A stretch of 64,000 nucleotides of DNA from Saccostrea echinata (Eukaryota): contig NW_026889832.1 of the NCBI RefSeq assembly GCF_033153115.1, positions 1,302,001 through 1,366,000 on the forward strand, written 5' to 3'. This document shows positions 29,430 through 52,132 of the stretch, piece by piece; the stretch's first letter is position 1, and each line of letters opens with the position of its first letter. Made by a program: the position numbers and the translations under genes. Below the pieces are notes generated by a model that had not been told where the DNA came from, made no database searches, and saw only the letters and a list, made by a program, of their open reading frames with translations.

Positions 29430-31025
29430 TCGTGATCAACATCAGTACTGGTGGGATTAGGAATGTCCTTGCCGGCCTTAATCCATACAAGGCCACCGGT
29501 CCTGATAATGTCCAATGCAGATTATTGAGGGAGTTTGCAGTAGCCCCAGTATTTCAACTACTCTTCCAGGCATCAGTTAACCAGCGTACAATACCAACTG
29601 ATTGGAAGTCTGCAAATGTTGTGCCAATATACAAGAAAGGGGACAAAGACAAAGCTGAGAACTATAGACCGGTGTCCTTGAATTCAGTCACATGCAAGCT
29701 TCTTGAACATATCATGGTCAGTAACATCATGGACCACCTAGATACTCACAAGATCCTGCATGATGCACAACACGGATTCAGGAAACGCCGCTTCTGTGAA
29801 AGCCAGCTTATATTAACAGTACAGGATTTGGCTAAAAACTTGGACAACAAGGGACAGACAGATGTCATATTGGGATTAGAGGCATATGGGATTAGAGGCT
29901 ATCACCTGCAATGGATAGAGGACTTTTTAAGTGGACGCATCCAACAAGTTCTATTAGAGGGACAAACATAAGGTACAGCTGCAGTAAAATCTGGAGTACC
30001 ACAGGGGAGTGTTCTTGGACCACTCCTATTCCTTCTGTTTATTAATGATCTGCCAGAGTATGTATCCAAAAATTCAACTGTCCGCCTATTTGCAGATGAC
30101 TGTGCTCTATATAGAGACATCAAAGATGAGGATGATGCCATACAGCTCCAGAAAGACCTAGATGGACTTCAGAGATGGGAGGACGAATGAATGATGGAAT
30201 TTCATCCTGGCAAATGTCAGGTCTTACATGTTACCAACAAAAGGAAGGTGGTCAGTGTACCATATGTTATCCACGGTCATGTCCTCGAGGTAGTAGAAAC
30301 AGCTAAATACCTTGGAATCCACCTTCATGAAGGTCTGAAGTGGAACCACCACATTGATACCATTGCAAAGAAGGCCAATTCCACCGTTGCCTTTCTGAGA
30401 CGCAAACTACACCAGTGTCCATCAGAAACAGAGGCCCTATGCTATCAGACCTTAGTCAGGCCCATCTTGGAATACGGGAGCAACATCTGGGATCCTTACA
30501 CCAAGGATAGCATTGGCAAACTGGAGATGGTCCAAAGAAGAACTGCCCGTATGGTAACATCTGACCATAGAACAACTAGCAGCGTATCGGACATATTAAA
30601 ACAGCTGAGTTGGACATCTCTACAGGAGCGACGTGGTCAAGCAAAAGCTGTTATGATGTACCGCATAGTGTACCAGCTCATCGACATTCCAACACTCCTC
30701 TTGTTTCCAGCCACGACAACCAGAGGAAACAGCATGATGTTCCTGGTTCCTTATGCCAGAACCTTAGTGTACCAGAAGTCATTTTTCCCCGATGGTATTC
30801 GAGTGTGGAACTCTCTACCAACATCTTTGGTTACCACCACCTCCCTAGATAGCTTCAAATCGAAGCTATCCAGCCACATCATCCGACCGTAAACCAACCA
30901 ATCTATTTCACCTGCACTGTAAATAGTTTATCTTATTTTTGAATCACCTTGTTTTCCTCGCACCACCATGTGCCAGTACGAAATATCAGAAGTTCTGATC
31001 AGTACTTTATTGGAAGAAGAAGAAG
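29430..31025 (+). mobile_element. 5'-truncated CR1-group LINE (RT pseudogene)
   Basis: [50 protein letters not shown] and SFFP..IRVWNSLP motifs. Stops at 29969 and 30188, the DFSKAFD region is deleted, and it ends in a (GAA)4 tail. Confidence 0.9.
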
Positions 31026-31329
31026 GGCATTTGGAGGAATTTCGGGAGTAACTTTAACAGACTCCACGGGCACAGGTAAGTTTAAGTTAGCAGATGAATG
31101 CGAAGAGTTCGCATATTCAGGATTTGTTAGGGATGCTAAAAATGTACTAGCTTTTTTCTTTTGCTGAACGGAAAGATCTCTATTGTAGGATTTTAAAGAG
31201 GCTTCGGATCTATGACCAGACATGAACATCATTTGCCTTGCTTCAAATCCTGCATCGTTCATAGCAGTTATTGCAGTGGCACGCAGACAGTGGGGAGTAT
31301 ATGATTGTTGACATTTTGCGGACTTGGAT
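31026..31329 (-). pseudogene. Crypton-type tyrosine recombinase, C-terminal half (catalytic box II)
   Basis: SKSAKCQQSYTPHCLRATAITAMNDAGFEARQMMFMSGHRSEASLKSY contains HxxR, H and the catalytic Y. It is continuous with 50509-51762 across the TSD. Confidence 0.9.
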
Positions 31330-31483
31330 CAATCGGAACTCCTCGGATGTCTCGCGAACTCAACAATAACCTCGGATGTAAAACGATGGACGCCATCGCG
31401 CTTTGAATGTTGGGAAAGGGACTACTTTAACCTCGTTTTCTACAATGGTGGAAAAACGTGTTACTGTCGAGTGTAGTCTGCTC

Positions 31484-31780
31484 TTCGTAATTTGAGGGTA
31501 ATTAAATTTGATGGTAGTTTTTGCTTTAATTGATTGAATTAATTTTCTTCATTGTGTTTACTTCAGCATACACCGTTAGATAATTATAGAATAGTAGAAC
31601 TTTTATTTCCTGTCAGGTTATTTTAGAAAATTGTAGTGGTGTTCGTAATTTGATGGTAAGTTTTGCTTTAATTGATTGAATCGATTTTCTCCAATGGGTT
31701 TATTTTAGCATACACTGTTAGATAATTATAGAATGATTATAGAATTCTATAACTTTTATTTCCTGTCAGGTTATTTCAGA
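31484..31780. repeat. Two ~150-bp direct repeats inside the AcademH left arm
   Basis: ttcgtaatttga...ttttgctttaattgattgaat...acttttatttcctgtcaggttattt occurs twice. Confidence 0.7.
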
Positions 31781-31975
31781 AAGTATTAAACTTTTACGGG
31801 ATGCAAAAACCTGATAAATTGACAGAAGTGTAAATACTACCAAAACAAAAAAAATAAGCAAAGATATTCAATGAGAATTATGTCTCAGTGGTGGTTGATT
31901 TAATTTTTACAGCAAAAAGCATATCACGAAAAGTTTACAATGATATTCAGAAGAAATTTTTTTATTTCAGTTAAC

Positions 31976-32658
31976 CAGGTCTGGTACAATCACTAGATTT
32001 ACCTGCGTAGCTTGAATTACCTACATAGCTTCATTTACCTACCTGAAGTAGCTTAATTTATTTAGCAACTAAATCAAACTTATTTCTTAAATTAGCATTT
32101 TTCCCAGAAAGTGCAGAAAAGTGCACTTATGCAGTGATAATTTTCAACTTTGAAGTCATCTGAAAACAATTAATGAAAAAATCACTCTTGGAGATGTGTC
32201 TTTTTCTGCGCAATTGCATTCAAAGTTCTAAAAGTTTTGGGGCTATATAAAACAGTTAATTTGTGACCTAACAGTTACTTCTTGAGTGAAATAACAAAGA
32301 AAGCCAGTTTTGGTTAACATGAACACAATGAGAAGTAATCATACTTATCCACGCCTCATCGCACACAAGGTGGTGTACAGTTACTCAAACAATGGAAATG
32401 CATATTTTCCTTAAAAGTGTTCAAACGCAGCAATGTTAAAACTATTTCTGCTTTAGATTGCTTTTTAAATAATACGTAGAATAAATATTAGTAGACATTT
32501 ACTTGCGCCTTTTTGTCTTTTTAAAATATGAAGCAAAATTGTGAAAAGTTGCCTTAAAATAGCTAAATAAAGCTACCTGAGGTAGGTAAATAAAACTATG
32601 GTAGGTATGGTAGGTAATTTTAGCTACATAGCTAAATGTACTGATTGTACTAGACCTG
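31976..32658. mobile_element. hAT5-like non-autonomous element
   Basis: TIR caggtct(g/a)gtacaatca and a 5-bp TSD ttaac. Confidence 0.65.
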
Positions 32659-35600
32659 TTAACATGTAGATCTATTTATGGGAGTCCTGGTCATTAGATA
32701 TGTTTGATTGTTGAATTTGTCACAGCAAAGCAACTTGATGTGAATTATGAATTATCTAATTATTGTGGTATGAATTATCTAATTATGAAGAAATCCAACA
32801 TGGTTGAACGACAAAACCTGCTTGAACTTCACTGAAAAAACATGCAATAAACAAACTGAATTTGATCACATATTTTGTTAAGTTTTTCTTTGGGAAAACT
32901 TCCACTACATTTTGGGAATATACAGGCATATTATCAGTTGGGACTGGGGCCGAATTACGGCCCAAAATTGGCCCTTAAAAAATCATGTATGTTTGATTGC
33001 TGAATTTGTCACAGGTAATCAACTGGATTTAAAGGTATTGGACTAGCAGGTCCACCTAACAGATATAACTATAAGACAAACCCTGTTGAAATACTGTGTT
33101 GGTGCAGTGAGTAATGGTTTGTGTCATTTTTCGATACTTTTCATCGTAAAACATTTATTCAAAAAAAAATCTTTCAGTTTACATGTAGATCTGTTTACCA
33201 CAAACCTAGATATGGAGTCCTGGTTATCAGATATATATGTTTTGATTGCTGAATTTGCCACAAAGTTTGAGGTATATCAACTTTTACATCTGTATAGTAG
33301 GTCTTCCTCATGCTTTCTTGTCGAGTGTATGCAGTATGTGAGAAACATTATTCCAAAGTCATTTGATCAAGTTAAAGTTTACTTATTGAAAAATATAATT
33401 AATATATAGTACAACAATTAGTGTACTGTACATACAGCTTGATGATGCAAATATATCTATTACAGAAATAAGTACTTTCATACATGGCTTCTACAAAGGA
33501 ATCTGTTGAAACACCTGTCAAAGTGATCTTTGGGGACTGTTGTGTGGTTTGTGAGTCCAGTACACGACGTCTACACTGTTTTCAGAATGTAAAGGCCAGA
33601 GAAGAGCATTTCAGGAAAAATTATGAAGCAGTACTGGGACAGAGAGTAGAAATGTTTTCATCCTTGAAAATATGTTATGTTTGTGCAAAAAATTGTGCAG
33701 ACTTTGCAAATTTTCAGGTTATAGTGAAAGATTCTTACAATAACATTTTTCAACGAAAACGAACTAAGCGACTTGCGATAACTCCATCATCTAAACTTCA
33801 GAGTGAAAGTGTCGTTTAAAGACTAAAAAAATCTATTGAAAAAATTAAAAGTCTCAAAATGTCTGACCAAGATGATCCCTCTAGATTTAAAGTATCTACA
33901 TTGAAATCCAGAAAATGTCTTTCATTGGATGATGATCATTCATATAACAAAACCATAAAAGGAAATGCTAATATAGATGGTAAGGGTTGATTATATTTTT
34001 TCTTCTTTTAATTTTTTAAAAATTTTTCTAGTCATGATTTCACTATAGTAAAGCAAGCTTGGTACACTTGAAGAAATAAAATGTTTGTTTTTTTTTAAAA
34101 TAGTAGTTCTTGAAAGATAAATAAAAATTCTAATAATATTTATAAAATGATGCATCATTATGCTGTTCTGTATAAATTTTACAGCTTCATGCTCCAAAGA
34201 CCTTGTTTGTGCTTCATTTTATGACCATATATACACAACTTGTGTCAAAAACACCTGCTCGAGAGGAAAAGTCTCTCACTCCAGATCCAGACAGCTGCAA
34301 AAATACTAACACGTTCAATGCGGAATGTCTTTTGTCCCAGGTATCAAATCAATTAAAGCTTACAATTACCTTTAGAAATGGTAATTTTATGACATTTTAT
34401 TTGTTCTTGAACAGTAATCATCATTATCATATTGATTAAAATGAAATTAATAATCACATATGAAATTTTACTGTATAGTAGAGGTTTAACCATACAATGA
34501 TACAGCGACCATATTGATCGCAAGGGCTTACATGTATGTCATGATACAGTACAAGTTAATTTTCATTAATTAATTATCAGTTAATTTAATTGTTGACTGC
34601 TGCATCATGATACATGTTGTATTGCATAATTGTATCATATCATTAGATAGCTTGCGATACTCAGGCCTACTGTATAATATGCCAATATATTATTAAACTA
34701 CAGTCACTACACTTCTTAATTTTTGTAATGTGCTTGAATATTTTGAACTTGACAAATTTTCATCTCTTAGGTATCAGAGGAGTATAAGAACCTGGATGCA
34801 CAGATTTCTCAGTTAAGCAAAGCGAACGGGAGCATTTTGTGGTTAAGAGATCCCAACCACCTCAGTGACAGTGATATTTTTGAGAAGTGCATTTTGGAAA
34901 TGAATGAACAGTGTCCTCTTTTTCTGTCCATTCTTGTAACCTGTTTAGGGCAGAAAATATCCTTGGAGTCAAAAATGGCAACAATAGCAACCATTTATGG
35001 CATGATACTGCATTCAAGAAACATGAAGGTGTCAGCTGTGCAAAGAATCTATACAGCAATTGCAATCCACTGCCATGCTGACAATGAGGTAGTATAAATT
35101 ATTACAACTGTTTGATATATTTAAAAAAAATTAGTGGTAAATTTAGATGAGATCACAATAAGATATAAAGATTTTTTGAGATATATAAGCACAAAATGTG
35201 TCTTTATCTTGAATCAAGCATTTTTCTCCTAACCTAATTTTGCCACTACATTGTTTGAGTTATGTTGCAATAAGTTATTGGTATAAGTATAATGAAGAAT
35301 GGATAAAGTAAATGATTTTAAAGTAAAAACCAAACCAGTGATGAGTTAATTAAAAGAAAAATTATGACAAAAATTGTGAGGAATGTGTCATTTTATGCAT
35401 TCTTATTTGAATGTTATACCAATTGTTTTGCTTTATTGCATGCTTGTTATGTAGAAAAGAAATGTTGAAAAGGCATATTGATTTAGAAGAAGGACCTACA
35501 GAAGCCATAGTTATCAGAAGTTCTTGTGTCCATTGCCCAGGTTTAAAAAATTTTCATTGCTGTTTATGCTTAAGGGTAAGTATGATTTTATAAGTACTTA

Positions 35601-36866
35601 TTATTTTGCATTCTTAACATGTTTTATGTTTTTATTAATGATTTTTCTAATATATAATGCAAATAACTGGTAAATTATGTAAAATTTATTCTTGGACCAT
35701 TGATTGGGAAGGCTATAAAGGCCAATGGGACTATTGTAAGAATTTTTAATAGGCCATTTTGAAAATAAACGGGCCTTCTATATTCTTAAGGGTCATACTG
35801 CATTTTAAATGAACAAGATGTGAAAATAGAACAAGAATGTTGTACACAAAATATTTCCAATAAACATTGCTTAAAAAATTGAATGCGTACCATAGCCTCG
35901 ACTACATGTATTATTGATTTAATGTGCCAATTTTTACTACAACTTGCGACTTTGGCCAAGCCTTTCCCAATCACTCTTGGACAACCATCGATTTTTATTC
36001 ACTGAATTATAAGCTACAGTAAATGAATGTACATGTATTTTGTGTGATATTTTAAAAGAAAGTGAAAAATTTTGTTCGTTACTAAAGGATATGTAATATT
36101 CTTAACTTTCCTGTAAATGAAATCAAACTTAAATAGCACAAGTTAACTTCATGATATAATGATGCACAGATATATAATTTTTGAACCACAATACGGTACA
36201 ACTTTCTGTATTTTGGGGGTTAATCTGCATATTATTTAAGCCTTACTATCACACACATTTTTTTTCAGTTGTTTCACAGGCTGAACAAGGTTCACATCAC
36301 CCTTTCTCATGAGTTGAAAAGATTTCTGCTTGGAAAATTTGCTGAATACTCTGAGGAGGAAATAATCAAGCAGTATGCAGAGGAAAGGAATGGAGAAATC
36401 AATGGTGACAATCTGGTTATTTATGTGAGGTCAAATGACATAAGGCATGATCATACTAACAGAGATCTACATTTCTTTGCCTCTGACATCACATTTGATC
36501 GTGTTAAAGGAGACCATCTCAGTAAAACTTTACCCTGTGGTGAGGTGAACAATATGGACTTCAGGACTTTTGTTCCATCACTGACAGAATTGAATCTCTA
36601 CAAAGAGGCTTCCAAAATTCTTGTGGGAAGGCTTCTATCAGAAAATATGGAAGCTTTTGAGTGGACGAAGAATGTCATACCATTGCATATTCCACACAAA
36701 CATGAAAAGGAAATGGCAGAAAAATCCAGTACACTGCTGCTACCATTGCAGTTAAAGAATGAAATGCACCATGACCAGTGTGTTGAAATTATGCTAGAAT
36801 ATGAAAGAATAATCAATTCAATATATTCCAAATCTGGCAGAGGTACATGATCAAAGGGATGATATA

Positions 36867-37046
36867 CAGTTCAACTGTGGTATCTCGAACTCTGATATCT
36901 CAAATACCATCTATAGATATGTCCAAGTAATTAAGAGGTTCAAACAACTTTGTATCTAAGTATTTTACCCTCAATAACTAAAATCCTCAGATATCTCAAG
37001 TTTTTTTCTCAGGCCCCTGGAGTTCGAGATAAAGGAGGCTTGACTG
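36867..37046. mobile_element. Tc1/mariner-pogo-type MITE in a transposase intron
   Basis: TA|cagttcaac...tatctcgaact mirrored by agttcgagata...ttgactg|TA. Confidence 0.65.
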
Positions 37047-38357
37047 TAGTTGACACTAGTTCATGACAATCTTTTCACATATTAAATTTTGTAATGGCAC
37101 TTGCACATTGATGAAATATCAAATTCCATAATACTATGTAAAGCTGAAAATGAAGTACTCTGAATTCTTAATTGAATTTTTTTGTCAAAAATGTACAAAA
37201 AAATGTATTCTTCAGAACGTTCAAATAACAAGTATATAGCATAGTATTGCAAGTTGGTATTGAGTAATATATTCATAATTTTGTTTTTAGGTGCTGATCT
37301 AGAATCACCGAGTATTCCTGTGGGAGGGGATCAATTGACGCGTGTTAATCTACAATCTGCTAAAAATCTTCGAGCAGGCTGCCATACTGCAGCTGAGAGA
37401 TTAGAACATCTTGATCCTATTGTTGTGGAGTTATTTCATACATCAATGAACTTCCTGCAGGTATGCATGCATGTAAATGTATCATAATACATACATGTAA
37501 TACATATGGTCTTTAATATATAGAATTGTTAGATATGTTTTTAACCTCACCTGAGCTAAATTCTCAAGTGAGCTTTTCTGGTCAAAATTTATCTTAATAT
37601 CTTGGTGCCATATTAAAAGCTCTGTGAGTGAAACAATTACACATGTAAAGATTTAATTGATTGTTAATGAGTAAACATGTACATGTAGGTTACTGTTATG
37701 AAGGAAATTTAATATATTTCTTGTCAAAGTCGAGTTGTTTTGCCTCACATTTAAAAGATCCAATGTCCAATAAACAGTGTTTTTGGTCCTAATAAATGAG
37801 AATAATTTTATTGAGGAAAAAAAATCATGAAAATCCAATGAAGATGAATAGCAAGGACAAAAGTGATTCACTTGAGGTTTGTGGGCCATGGGCCCCATCT
37901 TAAGTACTCTTTCCCAAATAAATGCATGCAGATCATTCTTTTTTTAATTTCAGAAATTATTTGTCAAATTCTATAAAACAAACCATCTCCGAGATGTTGG
38001 CACTATGGCTCACCTTAAACTGCTTATACAGAGAGGAAATGTAAATGGACAGGTTAAAAGAAGGTTTGAGGTAAATAGTTTACATTTTGCAATTTGATGA
38101 AAAAAACCTCACACTGTATTATAGAGTAGAAGGAGTTCTGCACTGCTTATGTGAGTCACTGTAACTTATACGCAGGTAGGTTAAGGCTTCCCGTAGAATA
38201 TCACAGTGCACTGTGTGCCTTCACATCTCTGAACTACCAAAATATGACGTCATAATGGAAAATAACGTCAAGTCACTGCAAACTTGATATGTTATGACGG
38301 GGAGAGTGTCATGAACTCTACACTTTATTTCAAACTGCATGTAAAATGCTAGATAGC

Positions 38358-41300
38358 TGAAGAATACTCGAATTTAATCCGTTTTACAAACTTTATTACA
38401 TGTAACAGGCATTACAGCTTACATCAACATATGCTTTCACACCGACCTCCTGGCTGCACGCACTACCCATGCTAATACACACTGACACATGACCAACACT
38501 AAGAAACATAACTCTTGCACACAAACTCTTACGTACAATACACATTCAGAGTTACTTCCCTTAGATAATATCAATCCACTACAATACCCCCTTTTCTAGA
38601 ATAAACTTTTACAATTCTCAAAAATAAAATGAATTACTGGAAAGAAATTACTGTCCAAAATATTGATAGAAAACATTTACAATATACAGTCTTATATATA
38701 GAGAACTTACAATCAATCACATTCACAAGGAAATAAGTTTCACATTTCAAAGTCCTCAAAACGTTGCGGTAATTTCCTAATACGGGTCGACCTTCTCAGT
38801 TTCGGAGTTACTGGAGCAGAAGACGGAACATCATCACTGTTATCTGTAGACTCAACACTCGGTTCACTAGGAGTCTCTGGAATATCAGATGCACTTTCCG
38901 GTTCCTGATATTTTTTAACAAATTCACTATTTCGCTTCACTAAAACTCCCTCCGACGATTTTACGACACAACTGTTTCCCGTTTTCTGTACAAGTTTATA
39001 CGGCTCGGCATGATACGGCGTATCCATTTTATCCTTGACTGCTTTCTTCAATAGAACCGAATCTCCTAGCTCTAAATCACAATCCATTGCACCACGTTTC
39101 TTGTCGATATAAAGCTTGTTTTTGTATTTGGAATACACATCCTTATCACGCACTCCCTCATCATAAACATTTTATTGTAGATTTTCTACTTGTGGTAGCT
39201 TTGTTCTCAGTTTACGACGGAACATCAATTCTGCAGGTGGTACTCCTGTTGTATTATGAGGAGTCGTTCTGTATGCAAATAGATATTTGCGGACTTCTGT
39301 CTTCCAATTCTTAGACTCTGCTTGTGCTATCCGAATTCTTTTCATCAATGATCTGTTTTGTCTCTCTACCTCCCCGTTTGCTGATGGATGTAATGGTGTA
39401 ACTGCTCGGTGCTTGATACAGTTATCTGTTAAATAGTCCTTGAATAACTTAGATCTGAATTGGGGTCCATTGTCTGAAGTTATTTGTAGAGGAAGTCCAT
39501 GTCGACAAAACATTCCCTCCAGTATATCAATGATTTTCTCACTTGTAATATCCTTGGTAATTTCAATCTCATAGTATCGGCTGTAATAGTCCACAACAAC
39601 TAACACATACTGTCCAGATGTTAACGGTCCAAGAATGTCAATTGCCAATTCTTGCCATGGTCCTGTTGGTAAGGGTGTTGGACTGATTGGTTCTGGTTTC
39701 GGAAATGCACTAGTAATCTGACATCCATGACACGATTTCACATACTTCCCTCTTTGATAAAATTCCGAATTCTAATAAGTTCATCATCCCTCCTTGAAGC
39801 TTCTTCTACTTCATGAGTGGACAGTGCCTGAGGAGTTGCCTCCCTTGCAATAAATTTCACATATTGCTCAGTGTTCCATGAATTACTGTTTTCTGCAGGT
39901 GTCTTGTCCACCAAACGTGATAATGCATCTGCGATATTCTGATGCCCAGGTGAATACCGCACTTTGAAGTTGTAAGCCATAAGTTTTCATAGCCATCTTT
40001 CAATTCTTGCATTAGGTCTGGATTTTCTTCCATAAAGCACTTCCAATGGCTTGTGGTCTGTGATTAATTCAAAATCAACCCCGTATAGATAGATATGGAA
40101 CTTCTCACATGCCCATACAACTGCCAAAGCTTCTTTCTCTATTGAATAATTGCGTTCGGCTGCTGACAATGTACGACTAGCATAACTGATGACCCGTGTT
40201 TCACCCTTGTTAACTTGAAGTAGGACAGCACCAAGGCCTACATTGCTAGCATCTGTCACTAACTGAGTTTTTTCTGCATCTAATTTGTAATGTCCCAAAG
40301 TTTTCACATTTGACAAACAACTCTTTAAAGTGTCAAAACTTTTCTTCTGTTCAGCTGTCCAGACAAATTTCACATTTTTCTTTGTCAGTCTTCTGAGAGG
40401 TTCTGCCACAGTAGCAAGATTTGGTATATAACGAGCACTAAAGTTTACAAGTCCAAGGAAACTTTTCACTTCAGATCCATTTGTTGGCTCTTTAGCGTTG
40501 AGTAATGACTTGATCCTTTCAGTAGTAGGTCCTATACTATTCTTTGACAAGACATGCCCCATGAATGTTATTTTATTCATCTTAAATTCACACTTGTTTA
40601 AATTTAGTGTCAATCCTTTATCCTTGAGTCTCTGTAAGGCTTTGCGAAGTCGCTCATCATGTTCTGCTTTGTCACGACCGTAAATAACAATATCATCTGA
40701 AATATTCTGTACTCCTTCACAGTCATGAAACACTTGTAAAATCACTTGCTGATATTTCTCTGGAGCTGATGAAATGCCAAACATCAGTCTTTCATATCTG
40801 TAGAGACCTTTGTATGTAACGAATGTAGTGATCTCCCTTGATGACTCTTCCAGCTCAATTTGATGGTATCCACTTCTAAGGTCCAACTCACTAAAAACTT
40901 GGCTACCATTCACCATGTAGAGTATGTCATCCACTGTTGGAATAGGATGCCGTTCACGAATTATGGCAGCATTGGTTTGTCTCATGTCGACACACAATCT
41001 AATGTCACCACTGGGTTTTGGTACAATAATGACTGGACTGACCCACGGTGTAGGATCATTAACTCTTTCAATGATATCCTGAGACTCGAGTTCATCCAAC
41101 TGTTCTCCTACTTTATCCCTCAAACTGTAAGGAATTCTGTACAAAGCTTGTGCTACTGGTTTCACATTCTTGTCAATATGTAATTTCAACTTAAAGTCTT
41201 TTAGTTTTCCTATTCCTTGAAAACACTCAGAATATTCATGAACAATGTCAGTTGGCTGAACTGTGTTGACTCCAAGTTTCAAAACTCCTAAATTCATAGC

Positions 41301-42728
41301 AGTGTCCTTGCCTAGTAATGCCGGTCCTTTACCATCCAGTACATAGAATTCTTCTCTGCTGTTACCAGTTTCTTGAATTGATGCCTGCGTTCTGAATCTA
41401 CCAAGTAATTTTAAGGGTTCCGTAGAACTGTAAGAAAAGAGCTTTTTCTCGCACTTCTCTGACTGACACTTAATACGTTTCTTCTTCAGAGATTCCCAAA
41501 GTTCTTTGTCAATAATATTTGCTGACGCCCCACTGTCAATGACGAACTCCACGGGATTTCCTCCAAGACTGACTGTCACTTTATCCGACAACTTGTCCCC
41601 TGTTTTAAGACTGAATGCATACACATCAGAGTCAGAATCCAGTTCAGAATTATCCACTGTGTGAATTTTCCCTCCTTTGCTTGGTCTGCTTGTAGCCCCT
41701 TTTCCTGATTTCTGCTTTGTTAAACAACATTTCATAAAGTGTCCAACTTTTCCACATTTTCTACACTCTTTATTCCTCGCGGGACACGATATATCTTTGG
41801 CGAAATGACCATCTCGTCCACAACGAAAACACTTATTACCTGGCTTTTTGTTCTGAAATTTTTGTTTCTGTTTGTCAGTTTTTTCACGATGTCCCTGAAT
41901 TCTGTTAACTGACGCCACAATTTCAGTGTCCATATGTCTAGCCTGTACTTCAGTCATTTCATATGTAGCTGCTTTTGTCCTCAATTGTTCTAAAGTCAAA
42001 TCTTTTCCTTTCTCTAACAACTTAGCTCTTATTTTGTGAGACCTACACTTTTCAATCACTTGATCCCGAATTTGCTCATCCTGATTTGCAAAATCACAAT
42101 ACACTGCCTGTTGTCTCAATTTCGTAATAAACTGTTCTACTGTTTCATTCTCGGTTTGTGTTATTTTTCGAAAAACATAACGTTCATACGGCACATTCAC
42201 TTTGTTTTCAAAATGTTTATCTAATGTTTTCACTGCAACTGTGTACACATTGTCACCGTCACCCGCTTGCACTTCATTCAATGTATAAAAAATGTCTTGA
42301 ACTTCTGGTCCTGCACAATGTAATAACAATGCTTTTTTCTGTTCTGGGTCACTTACCCCTTTTCCAACCACAAAAAGTTCAAAACTTCTGTGCCATCTTT
42401 TCCACGCCTGATTTAACTGCGATGGTTCAACATTTGGATCAAATTTCCCAATTCCGTTGAGTTCTATGAGTGTAGCCATTTTGTATTCATCCTCGTCGCC
42501 AGTGAAGAATACTCGAATTTAATCCGTTTTACAAACTTTATTACATGTAACAGGCATTACAGCTTACATCAACATATGCTTTCACACCGACCTCCTGGCT
42601 GCACGCACTACCCATGCTAATACACACTGACACATGACCAACACTAAGAAACATAACTCTTGCACACAAACTCTTACGTACAATACACATTCAGAGTTAC
42701 TTCCCTTAGATAATATCAATCCACTACA
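38358..42728 (-). mobile_element. Gypsy (Mag-like) LTR retrotransposon
   Basis: 226-bp LTRs (38358-38583, 42503-42728) with TG..CA ends and a 5-bp TSD atagc. PBS tggcgacgaggatg (42501-42488) and PPT agaaaagggggtat next to the 3' LTR. Confidence 0.97.
38740..42479 (-). pseudogene. gag-pol polyprotein (gag with two CCHC knuckles, protease, RT, RNase H, integrase), disrupted
   Basis: CFRCGRDGH..C, IDSGA, ISDD RT, TDAS/TDHKPL RNase H and SDNG..NGEVER integrase. Stop at 39987, deletion/frameshift at ~39740 removing the integrase HH region, frameshift at ~39170. Confidence 0.92.
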
Positions 42729-45700
42729 ATAGCTTATGCAAAATTCACGGGTCGTTAAAGGTTTTTTAAGTCTTATATGTCCGAATGTTTTAAAAATACA
42801 CCGCTTACCTACCCTTGATTGAAATTCAGCATGTTCAGAATGCTTATGAAAAATATACTTTTGAAATGTACTCTGTTTTATACCCGTGGTTGAGGTAGAA
42901 TTTATTTTGTGTGTATAAAAGAGTCTGGCGCACGTGATTAATGAGGATTAATCTGAGAATTTCTGTGGAAATCTGTAAGAAGAGGTTGTTCTCTAACTAA
43001 ATCTTGCTTGGGAAAAATGTGTGTTGGCTTTGTTTTAATACAGATTACGATATTGTGTGGAAAATACCCTCAAATTTGTAGGTAAGTTGAATTTCTCAGG
43101 AAATATTTTGTACCCAAGTAATACCATGACTTTTCCCAAGCACATTTCGGATACACAAGGATACGATGAGTTTATTTATATAACAAAATGTTAATAATTA
43201 TCGTGTTAATCAGCTGCGCCGAAGCAATTTATATGAAACACTTCAAAAAATTATAAATGACCGTCACGTGATCAACAAAGTCATGTGATATCATAACAAA
43301 ATATGTTAATATATAGCCGAGGAAACCCTTTATATAAATTGGAAGTACTAAAGTTCAATACTTATAAATTAAAACCAAAACCGACCTCGCAATGACATAT
43401 TATGTTTTGAGCGCATTTTAAAGCTTCGGGAAGCCTTAACATAGCTGCGTAATTTAAAGATTAAGATAATATGGAAAATGTACTACAGTATATTGCTCTA
43501 ATTTATACACATCTTTAGCAATGTTGACGGGGCTAGACAAATAGCATTAGCTGACGCCCGGTGTAGCATTATATTTTGATACCGCGATATGTTGAACCCG
43601 GGTTCAAAAGGGGGGGGGGTTGAAATCAAGTGAAAAAAAGCAAGGCCAAAGTTACTCAGGTGAGCGTTGTGGCCCATGGGCCTCTTGTAATTGTCATAAT
43701 TGTTGCTGTTATTAAAATTGGAGCATTGACTGGAGAACACGCACGCGCTACGAAGTCTCCATAGAATTTGAAATCCCCCCTACCCCTTTTATTTTTTACC
43801 ATGGGAGAGCTAAGTGATCTTGGGTCAAAGTTGGTCCTTCACTGTAATGATATTAAATTAATGCTTCAATTTTGTGTTATTTAAAAACAAAAATAGGACA
43901 AGCATATTTTTTGGTAGGACAAGTAATTTTACGATGGAAACCTGTCTGAGGGCAAGTACTGAAAAATTCTATTCGTATACCCCTGGTTGACATAATTTTG
44001 TTCCATTTATAATAAACAACATTGGATGAACATACCACTTGCTGCAGATATGTACTACATAACATTTTTGTTGATATTCATACAAAACAGTATAAACTTT
44101 TAATTCATTTTAGGGTTTTTAGGCCCTTGCCATAAATTGGCAGAGGGCATATAGTGTTACCCTGTTCCGTCATTCTGTCATCATTGACTTTCCATTCATT
44201 TTCTCGGCAACAGTTGCAAACATTTAACTCAAATTTGACATACGGATACGCCATAGGAATGTATACACAAGTCAACTTCGAATTTAGTCATGGTCAGATG
44301 ATTTTTGACAGAGTTATCCCCCTTGAACTTAGAAAAAAATCAGAAATTTTCAGTTTCCGCTCTCTAAATTTTGTAGGAATGTATGTATAAGGTTGAAATT
44401 GCATATGTAGGTATTTTTCCAGAAAATACAGGTCAAATACAAATTTGGTCCTGATGCAAACAAATTTAAAACTAAATATGGCATTTGAAATTTTAACTGC
44501 TTGCGGGGGGCATTCTTGGCGTTATTACGCCTCTAGTTTCTAATTAAAAAGCTTTACTGCAAATTAAACAGGCACATGAAGAATTCACCTTGACTTTTGG
44601 AATGTCTTACCTTTTACTACTGGTGATGGATATATTTAAAATGGATGATTTGTCTTCCAAACCTATCCATCCTTTAATAAAGGAAAACATGAAAAATAAA
44701 CACACGCAGGACAAGAAGATGATTTTCAATGAAATTATGGATAGCATCTTGGACAGAGCAATGATTTTGCCCAATTTTATGGTATAAAAGAATTTATTTT
44801 ACCTGGTTTAGTACATTTATTGATGTTAATTTCTTTCGACTGATGTATGTAAACTCTAAGGGCATATTTTATACAACCTTCCTAAGTCAAGAGTTTCTGA
44901 TTCATTCCGATTCACATTAACCTTTGACGGAAATAACAGAGGTCAATAGAGTTCAAAACGTATTCAGTAAAACAGGCTTATAATGAATTGATGTTCATTC
45001 CCCATGAGTCTAAACATATTATGAAGCTAACAGATATAACGAAGCAAAATCACCCGTCCCTGGCATTTTGTTGTCAGTTCTCTTCTTTCGAGGGTTTATG
45101 TGGAGTGGTGTGGATCAGAAACCCTAGACTCGAGAAGATGATTTCATACCCCTGCCAAAAAGGTTGGAGGGGAGGGTATTTTCAGGAATCGTGTCTGCCT
45201 ATCAGTGGAGTATGTCAAAAGCTTGAGTTTTTCTGATCAAAATTTGTTGTTGATGTCTCATATTCTTCACTAGACAAAATTCAACCAAACTTGGCAAAAA
45301 GCATCCTTGGGCCAGAAAGATGAAACTTATTCGGAAGTTCTAAAATTTTAATAGCTAACTTTGCACCCTTAAATCTTGTTATTAGTCCATTATTGAACAC
45401 TATATGTTTCTAGCTTGTGTACATCCATATTCAAGCATATAGAAGGCTCAATTGAAGATGTTTTATTATTTTGGTTTCATGAATGTTCCTCTGTTAAGCA
45501 AATTATGTCAGTGTTTTCCACAGGCCATTTTTACATTGGGTGTCAATGGAGGCCTACTCAGTGTGTAGAAAAAATGCGCAACACAGCACATTAAAAAAAA
45601 GCCCAGTGGCATTAAAGGGGGGAGAGGGGGAACTAGTAGCAACAATTTTTTTTTTATGAATGCATCTATTTTATTAAAAAAAAAAGGGTTTGTTCTTTTA

Positions 45701-46990
45701 TTAAAAGTTAAATTGACAATTTATTCCAAATATATTTATTATTTAAATTAAGGGGGGGGGGGGCACCGCAAAGCTGAAAATCCCCTCACAAAGAGTATAT
45801 AAATGTGCCATGCCCCCTTTCAAGGGGAAATAATTAAGAATTTATGAAAATTTGGTTGCATCTTCCTTTCCTTCCAATCCCCCAACCCCCAATTCAATAC
45901 TGAACTGATTTCTGCTTCTTCTTAGCCAATGTGCTCAGGTGAGCGATGTGGTCCAAGGGCCTCTTGTTAATATTCCTGTGAGCTGAGGTTGACCAAAGAT
46001 ATATTTCTAGTTTAATTTGCTGTTACTTTTGGATTTGAATTTAAGGTAATTTTTAACAATTTACAGGGGGAAGAGAATGCAGACTTAATTTTGTGTGTTG
46101 GATCAAATGAAACAAAGATAGCAGCAACTAATATTGATGGAAGAATTTCATTGAACCTTATTTATGCAGATAAACAGTATAGGATGAACTTATCATATGA
46201 TGAAATCAAATCTTCTACCACTGGAATTTTTGTCAACATAGACACAGAAAATGGTATCATTCCAGTAAACATTCGTCTGAATTCTACTGATGAACGCATA
46301 ATTATGTCAAATGTTTTATGCAATGGTACTTTGTGCTCATTAATTCCAATGATGCAATCAAAGAAGGAGACTAGAACAAATGTTATTTTGAAACTTCCAA
46401 TACCATTTTTCTACAGTCATTCTGCTCTCTCAAAGTACATGGTTGAGTGCATCGACTACATTCTGAAAACCGAAGTGATGTTGTCACATCAGCTTTCCCT
46501 ACGTGTGCGAGCAGGATCTTTTGTTAATACAAAAGGAGGAAAAGGCAACAACAAAGCTAGATATCTTAAAAGAAAACCAGGTCAAAATGTTGAAAAATTA
46601 ATATGTGGACTTGGCTCGAACAAAACTAATAATGCCATAGTCATCATATCAAAGGCTGCACCAGTGATTGAGTCAATTGTAGAAAACTTTGACTCTGTTA
46701 TTAAACTCAAGGAAATCAACACCACACACAAAAAATTGAAATGATGGGAGACGTCAGCATCATCATAAAGTTTTTAAAGGAAAATCAAATATGGACTGAA
46801 ATACTAGGACGAACTCTCAGTGATTACCGTAACATTTCACAGTCCCCATTTACATTCTCTCGACACATATTCAGAATGGATTTAATGAATGTTGTTCACA
46901 GGCTTAGACGAGGTCTAGTAGAATTAAACATTATGTCAGATGATTCGGACGAGGAATCAGACTGAGTGTTTCCGATTTTAATATTCAAAA

Positions 46991-49900
46991 TTAGTTACCT
47001 GTAGCTACCACTTTGCAATTAGAGCAACACATTTCTGATGGAACTTGGTGTTGACCGCCAAATCCAAAATATTTCAGTACAAATGATCTTAGACAAGTTT
47101 TGGTCTTGACATATTCAATCATTATGGGATATAATCCTCTACGATTACTTGCAATGTCATTATTGTTATAGTACGTTATTGCTTTTGCATTTTGTCCACT
47201 TCGACTAGCCCTACCAACCTCTTGAACATATTTCTCAATGCTTGTTGGTGGTCGCATGTGAATTACCCTAGAAACTGAAGGTGAGTTTAGCCCCATCCAA
47301 AGTGATACACTTGCAAATACTAATCTAAGTTTCGGATTTTTGATGGAAAGTTCAGCCACAATGTGTAATTTCATTTTTTCAGAATAATCTTTATGATATT
47401 GCCCAAAAATTCTGTTTTCTGGTATTTTTTTTCACCTTCAGGACTGTATGCTTGGTCACCCAGTATGTCTTGGCAGAACATGTAACTGTAACCTATGGCC
47501 TCTAAGTTGTCACAATATACAATTGTGACGGGGTTATCAAGCTTGAGTTCTTTCAGCTCCTCACAAATACCTAACAAGATTTCATCATATTTCTCATGCT
47601 TTTTGATGTTGGGAAGCCGTGTCCGAACTTCATAGAATATGTTTATTCTGTCTGTATTTTCAATGACAACAGCAGGATTGTGAAACTCTAAAGTGTTGCA
47701 CAGTTGCTGAATATCTTGTATTGTTGAAGTTGCTGTCAATGCTAAGTGAGGCACATGACTAAAGATGCTTGTAAGTTGTCCTAACTTCGAAAACGCTTTC
47801 CGAACTTCTTTACCCCTACAAAATTTAAAATTGTATGCTGCTGTTGTTAAATTGCTAGGACCCATTGTATTGATATTTACTAGGCCTTTCCAAGTTCTTC
47901 CTATGTTTAGCGTCTGCGTGCACTTTGGTTTTTGACACAACATAGCAGAAAAAACAAACAAAATCAGAAGCCCTAAAATTGATTATTCTAGTCAAAATCT
48001 CTTAAATTCTTTTAATTATATCAATTTCTGAAAATATTTTTCTACAATATTATGTTTATTTTAAGAATTTAATACAATGATTTTGCTAAAGAATTTATCT
48101 TTCTTCGAGAAAATCATTAACAAAATCAAATGCTTTGAATGATGTCATTTTTAAGACTATAAAGTCTGTGTTTTATTTTTTAGCTTTTGTGTTTTTTTGC
48201 GAATACTGAGGTAGGTACATATGTAGGTTTTTAAAGATGGATGGACGCTAAACAGAGAAAAAACTTGGAATGGCCTTCCTTTGAACATTAACATGACAGC
48301 AGTGATGTGCAATGTGTATATGTAATTTTACCTATGTACATTTACATGTATATGTCTGATTATATTTAATTGAATATGTGTGGCTTTTGACATATATGAT
48401 TGAGCTGTTTTGTACTGAGAACATATTCAGAATAAATTTGTTAATGATTTTGACATTGACTAATTGATATATTTGCAAAATAATAGATTATCACTCTGAA
48501 ATCATGTGCACTTCATCAATTGCTGTGCAGCATACATTATCCTGATAAAGTTTACTTCTCAGTATCTTTCCAATTATTTTATTGTCTGTTAGTGTCTTGG
48601 GGTGTGCATATATCAAATGGTAGCCCCCATTCTGGAAGTCACTCATAGAAACACTTGAGTATGCAAAGGTTTCTTGACTTGCTCCATCAGCATCCTCATC
48701 TCTGAAGGAGAATTTACAGTCAATTTGTGGAAAAGAACAAACAAGGAGCAGGAATTTGTATGATATATTGAAAATACTGCTGTTGTCATTGAAAATACTT
48801 TCAGTTCATCTGAACTGAAAGCTCAGGTGAGCTTTTCTGATCACATTTTGTATTTCTACCTATTCGCCCGTTCAGCTGTAAACTGTTCACATTGTCGAGT
48901 TCTCCAGAAGTACTTGACCAATTTCAACTAAACTTGTCTCGGAGCATCCTTGGGTGAAGGGGATATCAGTTTTTTTTTTTAAGGGTAATGCCCTTGTTCA
49001 AGAGGAGATAATTAAGAATAAGTGAAATTTGGTGACATCTTAAAAACCACAATGTTACAACTTGTATTAAAGCTTCATTAAATAGTGTAGATTCAATGGG
49101 ACAGTCAGGCAAAAAAAAATTGTGAAACTTGGTAGCTTATTAACTCCAACTCCAAGATCGGGCTAAGTTTACAAGTTTATTAATAAGTAAATTTACTCAA
49201 GTATGACTATCTTTTATTTACTCATTGACATCTTGCAGAAAATAGGACTATCTTTTCAATACAGAGGTCAGACCTCCCAGTTGGTCATATATAAATAAAT
49301 AAACTGAAAGTGGACCTACTTAACTCCTGATCTAGCGTTACTTTAAAGAATATTAAAAGTAAGATTAAAAAATATTATATATATTACATACCCCCTTGTT
49401 ACACAGAGGAGTATTAAGGATATGAGGTATAAAAAGGGTAGGAGTATATGAAAGTCTATAAATAGAGCCTAGTGACAAGAGAGCTGGGACCAAACTTCCA
49501 AAAATATTTGTTTGCAGTTCCTGATCTATAATATTTGACTAGTTTGCTGGGTGTTTTTTTTTTTTTTTTTTTTTTTGTTAGATAACAAAAATAGACTGAA
49601 CATAATTTATAATCTTCATTTGTTATAAGCCATTGATTTAAAGAACAGAAAATGAAAAGTTTCAATATCTGAATGCTTGAAACTTAAAACAAATGTAATA
49701 CTACTAAAAAGCTTGAAAAAAGTTTGGGTCTGTTGCATTTTCAGGGGGTCAGTAAGCAACTGCAAACAAACAAATTCTTATTTTAGACCTGAGTAGACTA
49801 ATAAGACTGTCAAAGGAGAGGTGTTATATATTTTAATTACCTCGTGGAATTGAAAGTGAAGTAACGGCCACTTGTTCCTTCTATGTTAAGAAACATGGCC

Positions 49901-50176
49901 TTAACTCCCCTCAAACACAACTGCCTAACCTGGTCTTGCATGATGGAATTTAACGGTGAAACGATGAAAACAATCATAGGCCGAGCTTGCCGAATTTTCT
50001 CTGCAATAGATACGGCAATAACTGAAAAAGAATGCTTTTGTCATATCCAGTAGGCAGTACCGCCATTGTATCTCTACCTCAAAGACATTTTTCAAAGTTT
50101 CAATTTGCTTGTCGCGCAAATTAAATGAAATATCTAAACAAGACTCAGCATAAGCTTTGTCTTCTGCAAAGCCCAT
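46991..50176 (-). pseudogene. RecQ-like SF2 helicase of AcademH, three exons (50176-49841, 48701-48492, 47815-46991), decayed
   Basis: LRDKQ, LPTGYDKS (mutated Walker A), SPLNSIMQDQV, AIDEVHMISEWG, LALTAT, IVYC, QEVGRASRSG and C-terminal CLR..YFG..CCSNC. Contains frameshifts and one mutated splice donor. Confidence 0.88.
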
Positions 50177-50508
50177 GCTGACCTTATTGTCCTTATCTCA
50201 TCCAGCTGTTATTAACTTTCCTTGATTAAATTGTCTTATGATAACTACTTTGATTTAATTTGGACCTTTTATTTAATTAAAAGGAAACACAGAAAAGTCG
50301 GTTAATTTGATTATTGCATCTCAAACTAGACCATTGTGAGTTTTTGATGAGAAGTGGATTATATTATATGAACACTGCATTATTCGGTGGGAATTACTAC
50401 GCGGACCTGTTCACAAAATGCATCGAATTCACTCATGGCGTCCATCGTTTTACATCCGAGGTTACTGTTGATTGTTGAGTTCGCGAGACATCCGAGGAGT
50501 TCCGATTG

Positions 50509-51762
50509 GGACTTGGATATGTCCTTCATGAAGCATCTGAATGATTGTTTCTGAAGAGGTTTTGAAGTGTACCAGATGTCACAGGCACTTGGAAAAGAGA
50601 GAGCATCTTTTAAACAGACATTAAACAGTTGAGTAGCTCCTTTTTCTGTTTTCGACATGAGGAGACAAAGCATTTTGAGAGGACAAAAAGGGGAATCTGG
50701 GATAGCGTAGAAGCGTTTGTCAGCAGGAACTTCATCACTGTGGAGACCACCTTGAAAATTTTTTTGACGAGTCTCATGCCGGAGAACAACATATTCAGTA
50801 TTGCCCTCACTACAGAATTCAAATGAATCGAGACGCAGTTGATGGTGAAATTCAAGGCCGCGAGAAACAAAGTGCACAGACAGATTAAACCAGACACATT
50901 GACGGAGAACAATGGGTGAAAAAGGTGCAGCTTTGAAATAGGAAGAATTTTTTTCGAGATCGTGTTGATTAAGAACTGTTTTATGCATTGTCGGCCTTGA
51001 AGCGCCGCTTTGGGTCATTTGTTTGAGCATCCCATCAAGGGTACGGTTTGCTGATTTGAACACAGTGTCATGAACAATATCAATTGGCCGACCGATGTCT
51101 TGTAGGTGCCTATTGATTGCGGATCTTATGATTTTCAGAGTATTCTTATGGTAGTGCTGTGTTTGAACATCAATCATATTTTCTTTCCTTCTAGTGCATT
51201 CCTTTGGTTTGGTCTCACAGTAAAATTTTCGTAAGTGTGATGCCAGGACTTCAGCTGTCACATTAGCAAAATCAAGTGATTCATCATAGACCTCAGAATG
51301 CCAATCTGAAATATTTATACGACTTTGCTAGGAAAGGGGGAACAGCTTTTAATAGTATTAAAAAAAAAAAAGAAATGTAAGGTTTTTTTTAATTTTATTC
51401 TTTGTTTCAAATCTATTTAAAGGAAAAAGTTTATATTTTTAAAATTATTTACCTTGAAATAATTTAATAGCCGACTTTGTATACATTTTGGTAGATTTTG
51501 ACTGCCTTGCATCTTCAAACTTTTTAAGATCATTTTCAGTACACGACTTGAATCTTTTGGGTACAGCTGGGGTCTCTGGAGGAGGGAGGCATGTAAAGGC
51601 ACTCTCTAACAATTTTTCCTTCATTTCAATCACATTCTGGACAGAGGATACTACTTCCATATTTGATAGATCCAAATTTTCCATAATTTCATCATCAAAG
51701 AGGAGCAATAACTCCTCACAAATTTAATTTTCCCCAATATTAAAGTCTCCATAATCAGCCAT
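50509..51762 (-). pseudogene. Crypton-type tyrosine recombinase (DUF3504/KCTD1-ZMYM-related), N-terminal part; intron 51452-51306
   Basis: Spliced junction KLFQ|DWHSEVY is in frame. Motifs LRKFYCE, IRSAINRHL, FVSRGLE (catalytic R), KNFQGG and CPL. A TAA follows 12 codons after ATG 51762; the next in-frame ATG is at 51684. Confidence 0.88.
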
Positions 51763-52132
51763 GTTTCATGTATAATTTACATGTAAAATGCAGAAGCAGA
51801 CGGATTTGTATAAATACATGGTTTTTATTTTTTCAAGTCATATATATTATGCATTTCTATTCAAGAAAATAAATGATAAATGTAGATTTGTTAATAAATA
51901 CTACAAAACAAGGCTTTGTTTGGCATGTTTTATTGTTTTCAGTTGTGTGACCTAATTTACAATGTTTACATATAGAAAGAAGTACTATTCCATGTAGATA
52001 TTACTACGCCATGTAATTCGACCATGTATTGACCTCTGACCTCTGAAAAACTTCATACAGAAATGAAGATATTTGCTCTCTGTATGTTTATATAATGGAG
52101 AAATACCACAAATGTATATATTTAAATGTGTT

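Follow-up and report, generated by a model that had tools for sequence, protein, structure and literature searches.

A full-length, probably inactive AcademH transposon with predicted DDE transposase and RecQ-type helicase genes in Saccostrea echinata

The Pfam domain DUF6589 is taken here to be the transposase of Academ transposons, a superfamily that includes the AcademH and AcademX lineages. AcademH elements have YR..YR termini and carry two genes on opposite strands. As described in the accessible parts of the literature, AcademH elements encode a helicase (PMC10045372, PMC10799480) and generate target-site duplications (TSDs) of 9 or 10 bp, whereas those of AcademX measure 3 or 4 bp, a difference that has been tied to the accessory enzyme (PMC10045372). 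Academ elements have expanded in bivalves, according to the available portions of PMC10294476. The locus described here lies in a window, meaning the whole 64-kb stretch analysed (contig NW_026889832.1 of Saccostrea echinata, assembly GCF_033153115.1, positions 1,302,001 to 1,366,000 of the forward strand), in which a full-length AcademH transposon occupies positions 31330–50508. It is very probably a single, now inactive element in which a DDE transposase gene faces a RecQ-type helicase gene; it likely arrived by cut-and-paste transposition, with duplication of 10 target base pairs, and later decayed. The CA..TG termini, a form of YR..YR, and the convergent genes on opposite strands agree with the AcademH pattern. 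The assignment to AcademH, proposed in a preliminary description of this DNA, is borne out by the transposase, the convergent helicase and the 10-bp TSD, and the Pfam comparison it called for gave matches to DUF6589 (E 3.7e-10), Helicase_C (E 3.3e-9) and RecQ_Zn_bind (E 4.1e-6).

Termini, empty site and nested insertions

The left terminal inverted repeat (TIR; 31330–31396, plus strand, 67 bp) and the right TIR (50435–50508, minus strand, 74 bp) are the same at all 67 aligned sites, and their sole difference is a 7-bp insertion in the right TIR. The motif CCTCGGATGT occurs four times in the whole window, twice in each TIR (at 31341 and 31370, and at 50452 and 50488). A CTCG(G/T) core is found at position 13 and again at positions 37–49 in all ten of the ends compared, which belong to six elements. 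The two motifs of each TIR are likely the sites to which the transposase binds.

Both ends of the element are flanked by the 10-bp sequence GGACTTGGAT (31320–31329 and 50509–50518, plus strand), and a match at all ten positions would arise by chance with a probability of about 1.5e-6. Additionally, the searched S. echinata genome (923 Mb, with contigs labelled C1, C2, C35 and so on, and with genome-wide counts that are lower bounds) holds two paralogues of this flanking sequence that lack the element, on C35 and C54, each with a single copy of the 10-mer, one of them with one mismatch. Because these paralogues run uninterrupted through the site, both the point of insertion and the length of the duplication are observed directly rather than inferred. 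A 9-bp TSD was also considered for this element and rejected, as it would require asymmetric ends and copies of the same family fit 10 bp, not 9. The TIRs with two internal motifs, the CA..TG termini and the 10-bp TSD of the preliminary description thus all stand, and so do the boundaries that it gave to the element. Its length of 19.2 kb, however, takes in 4.4 kb of unrelated retrotransposon; once this is removed, AcademH proper measures 14,803 bp.

The nested insertion is a Ty3/Gypsy-type long terminal repeat (LTR) retrotransposon of 4,371 bp (38358–42728, minus strand), which lies in intron 6 of the AcademH transposase gene between 5-bp TSDs of ATAGC. Its two 226-bp LTRs (38358–38583 and 42503–42728) are identical and have 15 matches in the genome; between them lie sequences resembling a primer-binding site and a polypurine tract, and a coding region split over three separate open frames. 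AcademH in turn interrupts the DUF3504/tyrosine recombinase (YR) gene of a Crypton-like element, read on the minus strand. The 3ʹ part of this host (31026–31329) holds the HCLR..H..Y motifs (Phage_integrase E 2.9e-5), and the 5ʹ part (50509–52122; DUF3504 E 3.8e-7) ends next to an (AT)41 run. On C35, the uninterrupted paralogue, to which the 3ʹ and 5ʹ parts match at 98% and 96%, has an open stop-to-stop frame of 420 aa. The host element is 1.9 kb long and has at least four close copies, in the window and on C35 (L062), C54 (L063) and C1 (L064). DUF3504 is identified as the Crypton recombinase in the accessible part of PMC3212892.

The order of nesting is Crypton-like host first, AcademH second and Gypsy last. 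The Crypton-like copy carries 1.9% private substitutions (21 of 1,087 sites), the divergence of AcademH is at most about 1.9%, as judged from its TIR and TSD pairs, and that of the Gypsy element is below about 0.7% per LTR (95% upper bound).

Transposase and helicase genes

The transposase gene is predicted to comprise eight exons on the plus strand (33484–46965) with AG/GT borders and with phases that are consistent from exon 3 to exon 8. Exon 1 (33484–33979) is Cys-rich with a zf-AD-like start (E 0.33, below the cut-off). It matches a same-family remnant on C2 at 89% and gives a weak match to the relatives P0194 and P0159 (E 0.012–0.013), which spans an in-frame TAA at 33817–33819. Exon 2 (34185–34340) was placed by its AG/GT borders and phase arithmetic. 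Exons 3 to 8 have strong matches to sister elements and database proteins: exon 3 (34771–35088) at 32–45% to sister elements and relatives, and exon 4 (36269–36842), exon 6 (37954–38070) and exon 7 (44572–44781) at 50%, 57% and 44%, respectively, to the relative P0009. The first predicted catalytic D lies in exon 4 (GDN, 36404), the second in exon 5 (37291–37460; GDQLT, 37326), which gives the DUF6589 match noted above, and the E in exon 8 (46067–46965; KENQV, 46569), which matches DUF6589 at E 5.2e-5.

The helicase gene is predicted to comprise three exons on the minus strand (50176–46991), convergent to the transposase gene. Exon 1 (49841–50176) contains Walker A, exon 2 (48492–48701) the DEVH box at 48517, and exon 3 (46991–47815) motifs III to VI and the RecQ Zn tail. 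The protein is 55–81% identical to seven relatives, P0003 being the closest named one (65%). Full-length relatives are about 458 aa long, contain only the DEAD, Helicase_C and RecQ_Zn_bind domains, and are nearest in the PDB to RECQ1, WRN and RecQ (E 1e-41). The stop codons of the two genes are 25 bp apart (46966–46990), so that transcripts of the two genes would overlap in their 3ʹ untranslated regions and might pair into double-stranded RNA. Both the eight-exon GDN/GDQLT transposase and the opposite-strand DEVH helicase with its Zn tail, as first proposed, are upheld, with exons 3 to 8 of the transposase placed by homology, exon 1 weakly so and exon 2 by splice signals. The further claim, that this copy allows the gene models to be read exactly, is right for most exon borders and fails for the proteins, as the genes are broken and the reading frame comes from relatives.

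Together, the two genes carry at least 11 lesions, comprising one stop codon, nine frame changes and one lost splice donor. In the transposase gene, these are the TAA of exon 1, a net frame change near 34245 in exon 2, which is deduced from phase, and a further five in exon 8, mapped against relatives. Two of the five bracket the catalytic E segment, which is therefore out of frame. Moreover, the residue after GDNL is V in the window, where D is conserved at 97% in relatives. In the helicase gene, there are two frame changes in exon 1 and one in exon 3, the donor of exon 2 reads AT where all four sisters compared have GT, Walker A reads TGYDKS for TGYGKS, and motif VI reads GRAS for GRAG. The frame change of exon 3 falls in an A8 run near 47430 that is two bases shorter in the C2 remnant, which also retains VALGMG where the window reads VSLWMG. 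This remnant (C2:23017495-23018166) is 89–95% identical and has lost two large internal segments; no TIR was found in the 20 kb read there. Intact transposase and helicase frames, as expected of an autonomous, active AcademH copy, were not found at this locus, and its sequence identifies the copy as an inactive pseudogene.

Were the frame changes errors of assembly, the element could be intact and active. Four of the nine do fall in runs of 5–8 identical bases, two pairs of those in exon 8 compensate each other, and the TIRs and TSD contain no substitution. However, the other five lie outside long runs, and base substitutions have accumulated too, namely the TAA stop, the GT to AT change at the donor, and the G to D and G to S changes in Walker A and motif VI. 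Nor is the assembly at this locus ridden with indels, as the nested retroelement retains an 843-codon frame and the host gene aligns without a gap over 1,087 sites with its C35 paralogue. Because so few of the frame changes are in long homopolymers and the neighbouring frames are free of indels, assembly error is unlikely, and an intact element is extremely improbable.

A second possibility is that the copy had died before it moved here, mobilized in trans by the enzymes of a sister element. A copy with perfect TIRs and a perfect TSD but at least 11 coding lesions would fit such a history, as would the contrast between no indels in 1,087 host coding sites and nine in about 4.3 kb of AcademH coding sequence. 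This contrast is not significant (P about 0.10–0.22), however, and the loss at conserved columns (12 of 144 and 7 of 91) is inside the range of the relatives. Furthermore, the 1.9% of private substitutions in the host equals the upper bound from the TIR and TSD pairs, and decay in place fits for this reason. Death before the move is the less likely account, and decay after insertion the preferred one.

Related copies and the route of transposition

A genome-wide search with a 26-nt TIR pattern, allowing up to three mismatches, yielded 24 matches, spread over 19 loci, against none for the reversed control. The loci comprise the window, nine small two-ended copies of the same family, two sister-family miniatures and single ends. 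The latter consist of two solo ends on C51 and C20, with no partner found within about 20 kb, two sister-family ends, and three ends on C30, C52 and C54 that share one flank and were excluded from the TSD counts as they are not independent insertions. A second full-size copy of the window family was not found genome-wide, nor was an intact one, the next-best match to exon 4 having 47% protein identity. TSDs of 9–10 bp flank 7 of the 11 other two-ended TIR copies, in line with what the preliminary description expected of such a tabulation. For the same-family miniatures, a 10-bp TSD is present in five of nine (10, 10, 9, 9 and 7 of 10 positions matching).

The nine small copies are hairpins of 62–119 bp, one of which now measures 1.5 kb because it holds an insert. 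The eight others (C22:17064440, C33:34464018, C25:19757051, C13:3130637, C10:2170362 and one each on C1, C14 and C57) retain 19–40 bp of each end, and their middles are all different; that on C22 forms a perfect stem of 37 bp. The 1.5-kb copy (C10:12536666-12538167, L126), which has a perfect 10-bp TSD, looks like a miniature hairpin with an unrelated insert that bears a terminal palindrome. The insert is presumably Helentron-like. An 82-bp miniature of a sister family, found at two unrelated sites (C28:16935285 and C34:3386289) with a 9-bp TSD at both, is likely a true mobile miniature inverted-repeat transposable element, and TSD length looks family-specific.

Larger sisters are also present. 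Among 13 sister loci examined, both ends were found for six and not for seven. All six two-ended sisters have CA..TG termini, with a 10-bp TSD in four and an 8-bp TSD in two, which represent one site. Further AcademH families of 6.7–13.9 kb lie at C16:13828705, C5:13372174, C25:25292722, C5:5487099 and C33:6592403 (one end found for the last); the copies on C5 and C25 share 98% identity. Across the genome, a convergent helicase lies within 15 kb of 27 of the 35 transposase loci, other arrangements occur at none, and the chance expectation is about 0.003 per locus. The lists of 35 transposase and 101 helicase loci were each drawn up from one exon and are lower bounds. Intron-rich AcademH copies, with 27 such paired loci, are thus common in this genome, and databases label the encoded proteins either 'uncharacterized' or WRN/RECQ1-like host genes.

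Relatives of the transposase are likewise numerous. A HMMER search with exon 4 found 808 at E ≤ 0.001, whereas a word-index search with the same exon for longer proteins gave no match among 817 candidates. The core of the window transposase is 40–49% identical to 23 relatives, including three unnamed records; the named ones come from oysters, scallops, mussels, clams, abalones, a brachiopod and a priapulid. In a tree of unnamed DUF6589 proteins, which includes no named AcademH families, it groups with P0180 with a support of 1.0. An AlphaFold model of the intact relative P0009, built on a 49-row alignment (predicted local distance difference test score 89, predicted template modelling score 0.87), suggests an RNase H-like DDE fold. 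VIA-align placed the P element transposase first (PDB 6p5a; Z 11.1, root-mean-square deviation 5.3, 301 aligned), followed by Hermes (8edg; Z 9.8) and retroviral integrase cores (Z 8–10). D28, D186 and E508 of P0009, which correspond to the GDN, GDQLT and KENQV residues of the window, are 97–100% conserved and lie in the model where they are expected, in a strand, at the end of a strand and in a helix.

Based on this fold and on known DDE enzymes, the transposase would bind the two CTCGG motifs in each TIR, excise the element and join its ends to target DNA with a 10-nt stagger. The helicase, a RecQ motor and Zn domain with no further domain, would be a dedicated partner that may unwind or clear the intermediate of strand transfer, allowing the long gaps of 9–10 nt to be filled in. 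The chances that the helicase processes this intermediate appear about even. Such a role would fit the tie between accessory enzyme and TSD length in the accessible part of PMC10045372.

A more radical proposal is that AcademH moves by a helicase-driven replicative route (copy-out or peel-off), with the hairpins as template-switch products between TIRs. The retention of the helicase at 27 of 35 loci speaks for it, and so do miniatures that consist of little beyond two 19–40-bp TIR arms with differing middles. However, the nearest folds are those of cut-and-paste enzymes (P element and Hermes), copy numbers are low, and ordinary TSDs together with gap-repair deletions account for the miniatures. 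Internal deletions by gap repair are established for P and Ac/Ds. The replicative route therefore seems rather improbable, and under the preferred cut-and-paste route the tiny hairpins are likely internal-deletion products of interrupted repair of the excision gap.

The helicase could also have been captured as a passenger that plays no part in transposition, as 74 of the 101 helicase matches are unpaired with the 35 transposase loci (both minimum counts). Yet the convergent layout is fixed inside the TIRs of six full-size copies, with stop codons that are 25 bp apart in the window and 119–975 bp apart in four sisters. The helicase motifs are conserved in relatives from distant molluscs, and the nearest relatives of transposase and helicase match. 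A passenger is thus very unlikely, and a dedicated partner is favoured.

Several observations weigh against the account of a two-gene, cut-and-paste AcademH element with a 10-bp TSD. Four of the nine same-family miniatures have no recognizable TSD, and a distant helicase-transposase element with an 83-bp TIR, one site of which is present on two contigs (C24:2366480-2375140 and C62), has a TSD of 8 bp. The eight-exon and three-exon models are predictions from the DNA, and a homology search with exon 2, which was placed by splice signals, gave no match. Neither Foldseek on the PDB (nothing at E ≤ 0.001) nor a profile search of the PDB (no significant transposase match) recovered the DDE fold, which is predicted from VIA-align and from P0009 rather than from the window protein. 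Cut-and-paste movement, although likely, is deduced by analogy, and the part that the helicase may play in transposition is likewise deduced.

As the copy in the window is dead, it cannot settle the function of the helicase, for which no functional test in AcademH was found in the literature searched. What it adds are exact ends, a 10-bp TSD proven by paralogues and a two-motif TIR design common to six elements; for specialists, this is useful cataloguing and no surprise. The natural mini-elements suggest how little DNA the AcademH enzymes need. It is conceivable, if rather doubtful, that AcademH transposes by a helicase-coupled route of which the 62–119-bp hairpins are direct by-products that define the minimal ends. 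If so, the hairpins and intact mollusc relatives (P0009-type transposases and P0004-type helicases) would offer ready substrate for tests of a transposon-borne RecQ.

Other features of the window lie outside these elements. A 233-aa open reading frame at 30191–30892 has no Pfam match and presumably resembles non-LTR retrotransposon proteins at their C terminus. Also present are a 3-kb element whose inverted ends are rich in repeats (60263–63348), a 41-bp foldback minisatellite (8859–9442) and 165-bp satellite-like arrays (52600–59500).

Comparison with known systems

The element resembles the AcademH lineage in its DDE (DUF6589) transposase, DEAD/Helicase_C helicase, TIRs, 10-bp TSD, low copy number and animal host. 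It differs in that a nested retrotransposon has lengthened the window copy, which is dead, and one distant sister has an 8-bp TSD. By sequence, it is likely a new family of this known lineage, not a new kind of element. Bivalve Academ families with TAG ends are presumably AcademX. In the accessible part of the PMC10294476 Academ library, 13 of the first 14 entries listed start with TAG, not CA, and none of the 100 curated bivalve Academ consensus sequences has the terminal 10-mer of the window element in its kept start. Its terminal motif was not found in supplement files 1–12, 21, 23, 24 and 25 of the 33 that accompany that paper (21, 24 and 25 as shortened sequences). It is plausible, on comparison with this one bivalve library, that the family is uncatalogued.

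The transposase shares with those of the Drosophila P element and Hermes an RNase H-like DDE core that is split by a large insertion, as judged from the P0009 model. Identity to these enzymes is only 6–8%, however, and those systems have no helicase partner. The likeness of the helicase to human RECQ1, WRN and RECQ5 and to E. coli RecQ covers the motor domains and the Zn-binding domain (E 1e-41 to 1e-25). Unlike those RecQ cores, the element helicase stops right after the Zn domain and has no winged-helix or HRDC match. The interrupted host, which is separate from AcademH, is likened to the CryptonA transposons described in the accessible part of PMC3212892 from its DUF3504/YR gene, its multiple copies and the catalytic motifs of its intact paralogue.

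AcademX belongs to the same superfamily and is common in bivalves. In the portions of PMC10045372 available, it is distinguished by a nuclease partner and a 3–4-bp TSD, whereas the window element has a helicase and a 10-bp TSD. KolobokH is likewise a DDE transposon with a RecQ helicase. According to the accessible part of PMC9587614, it has been reported only from fungi and duplicates the 4-bp target TTAA, whereas the window element carries DUF6589 and belongs with elements whose 10-bp TSDs vary in sequence.

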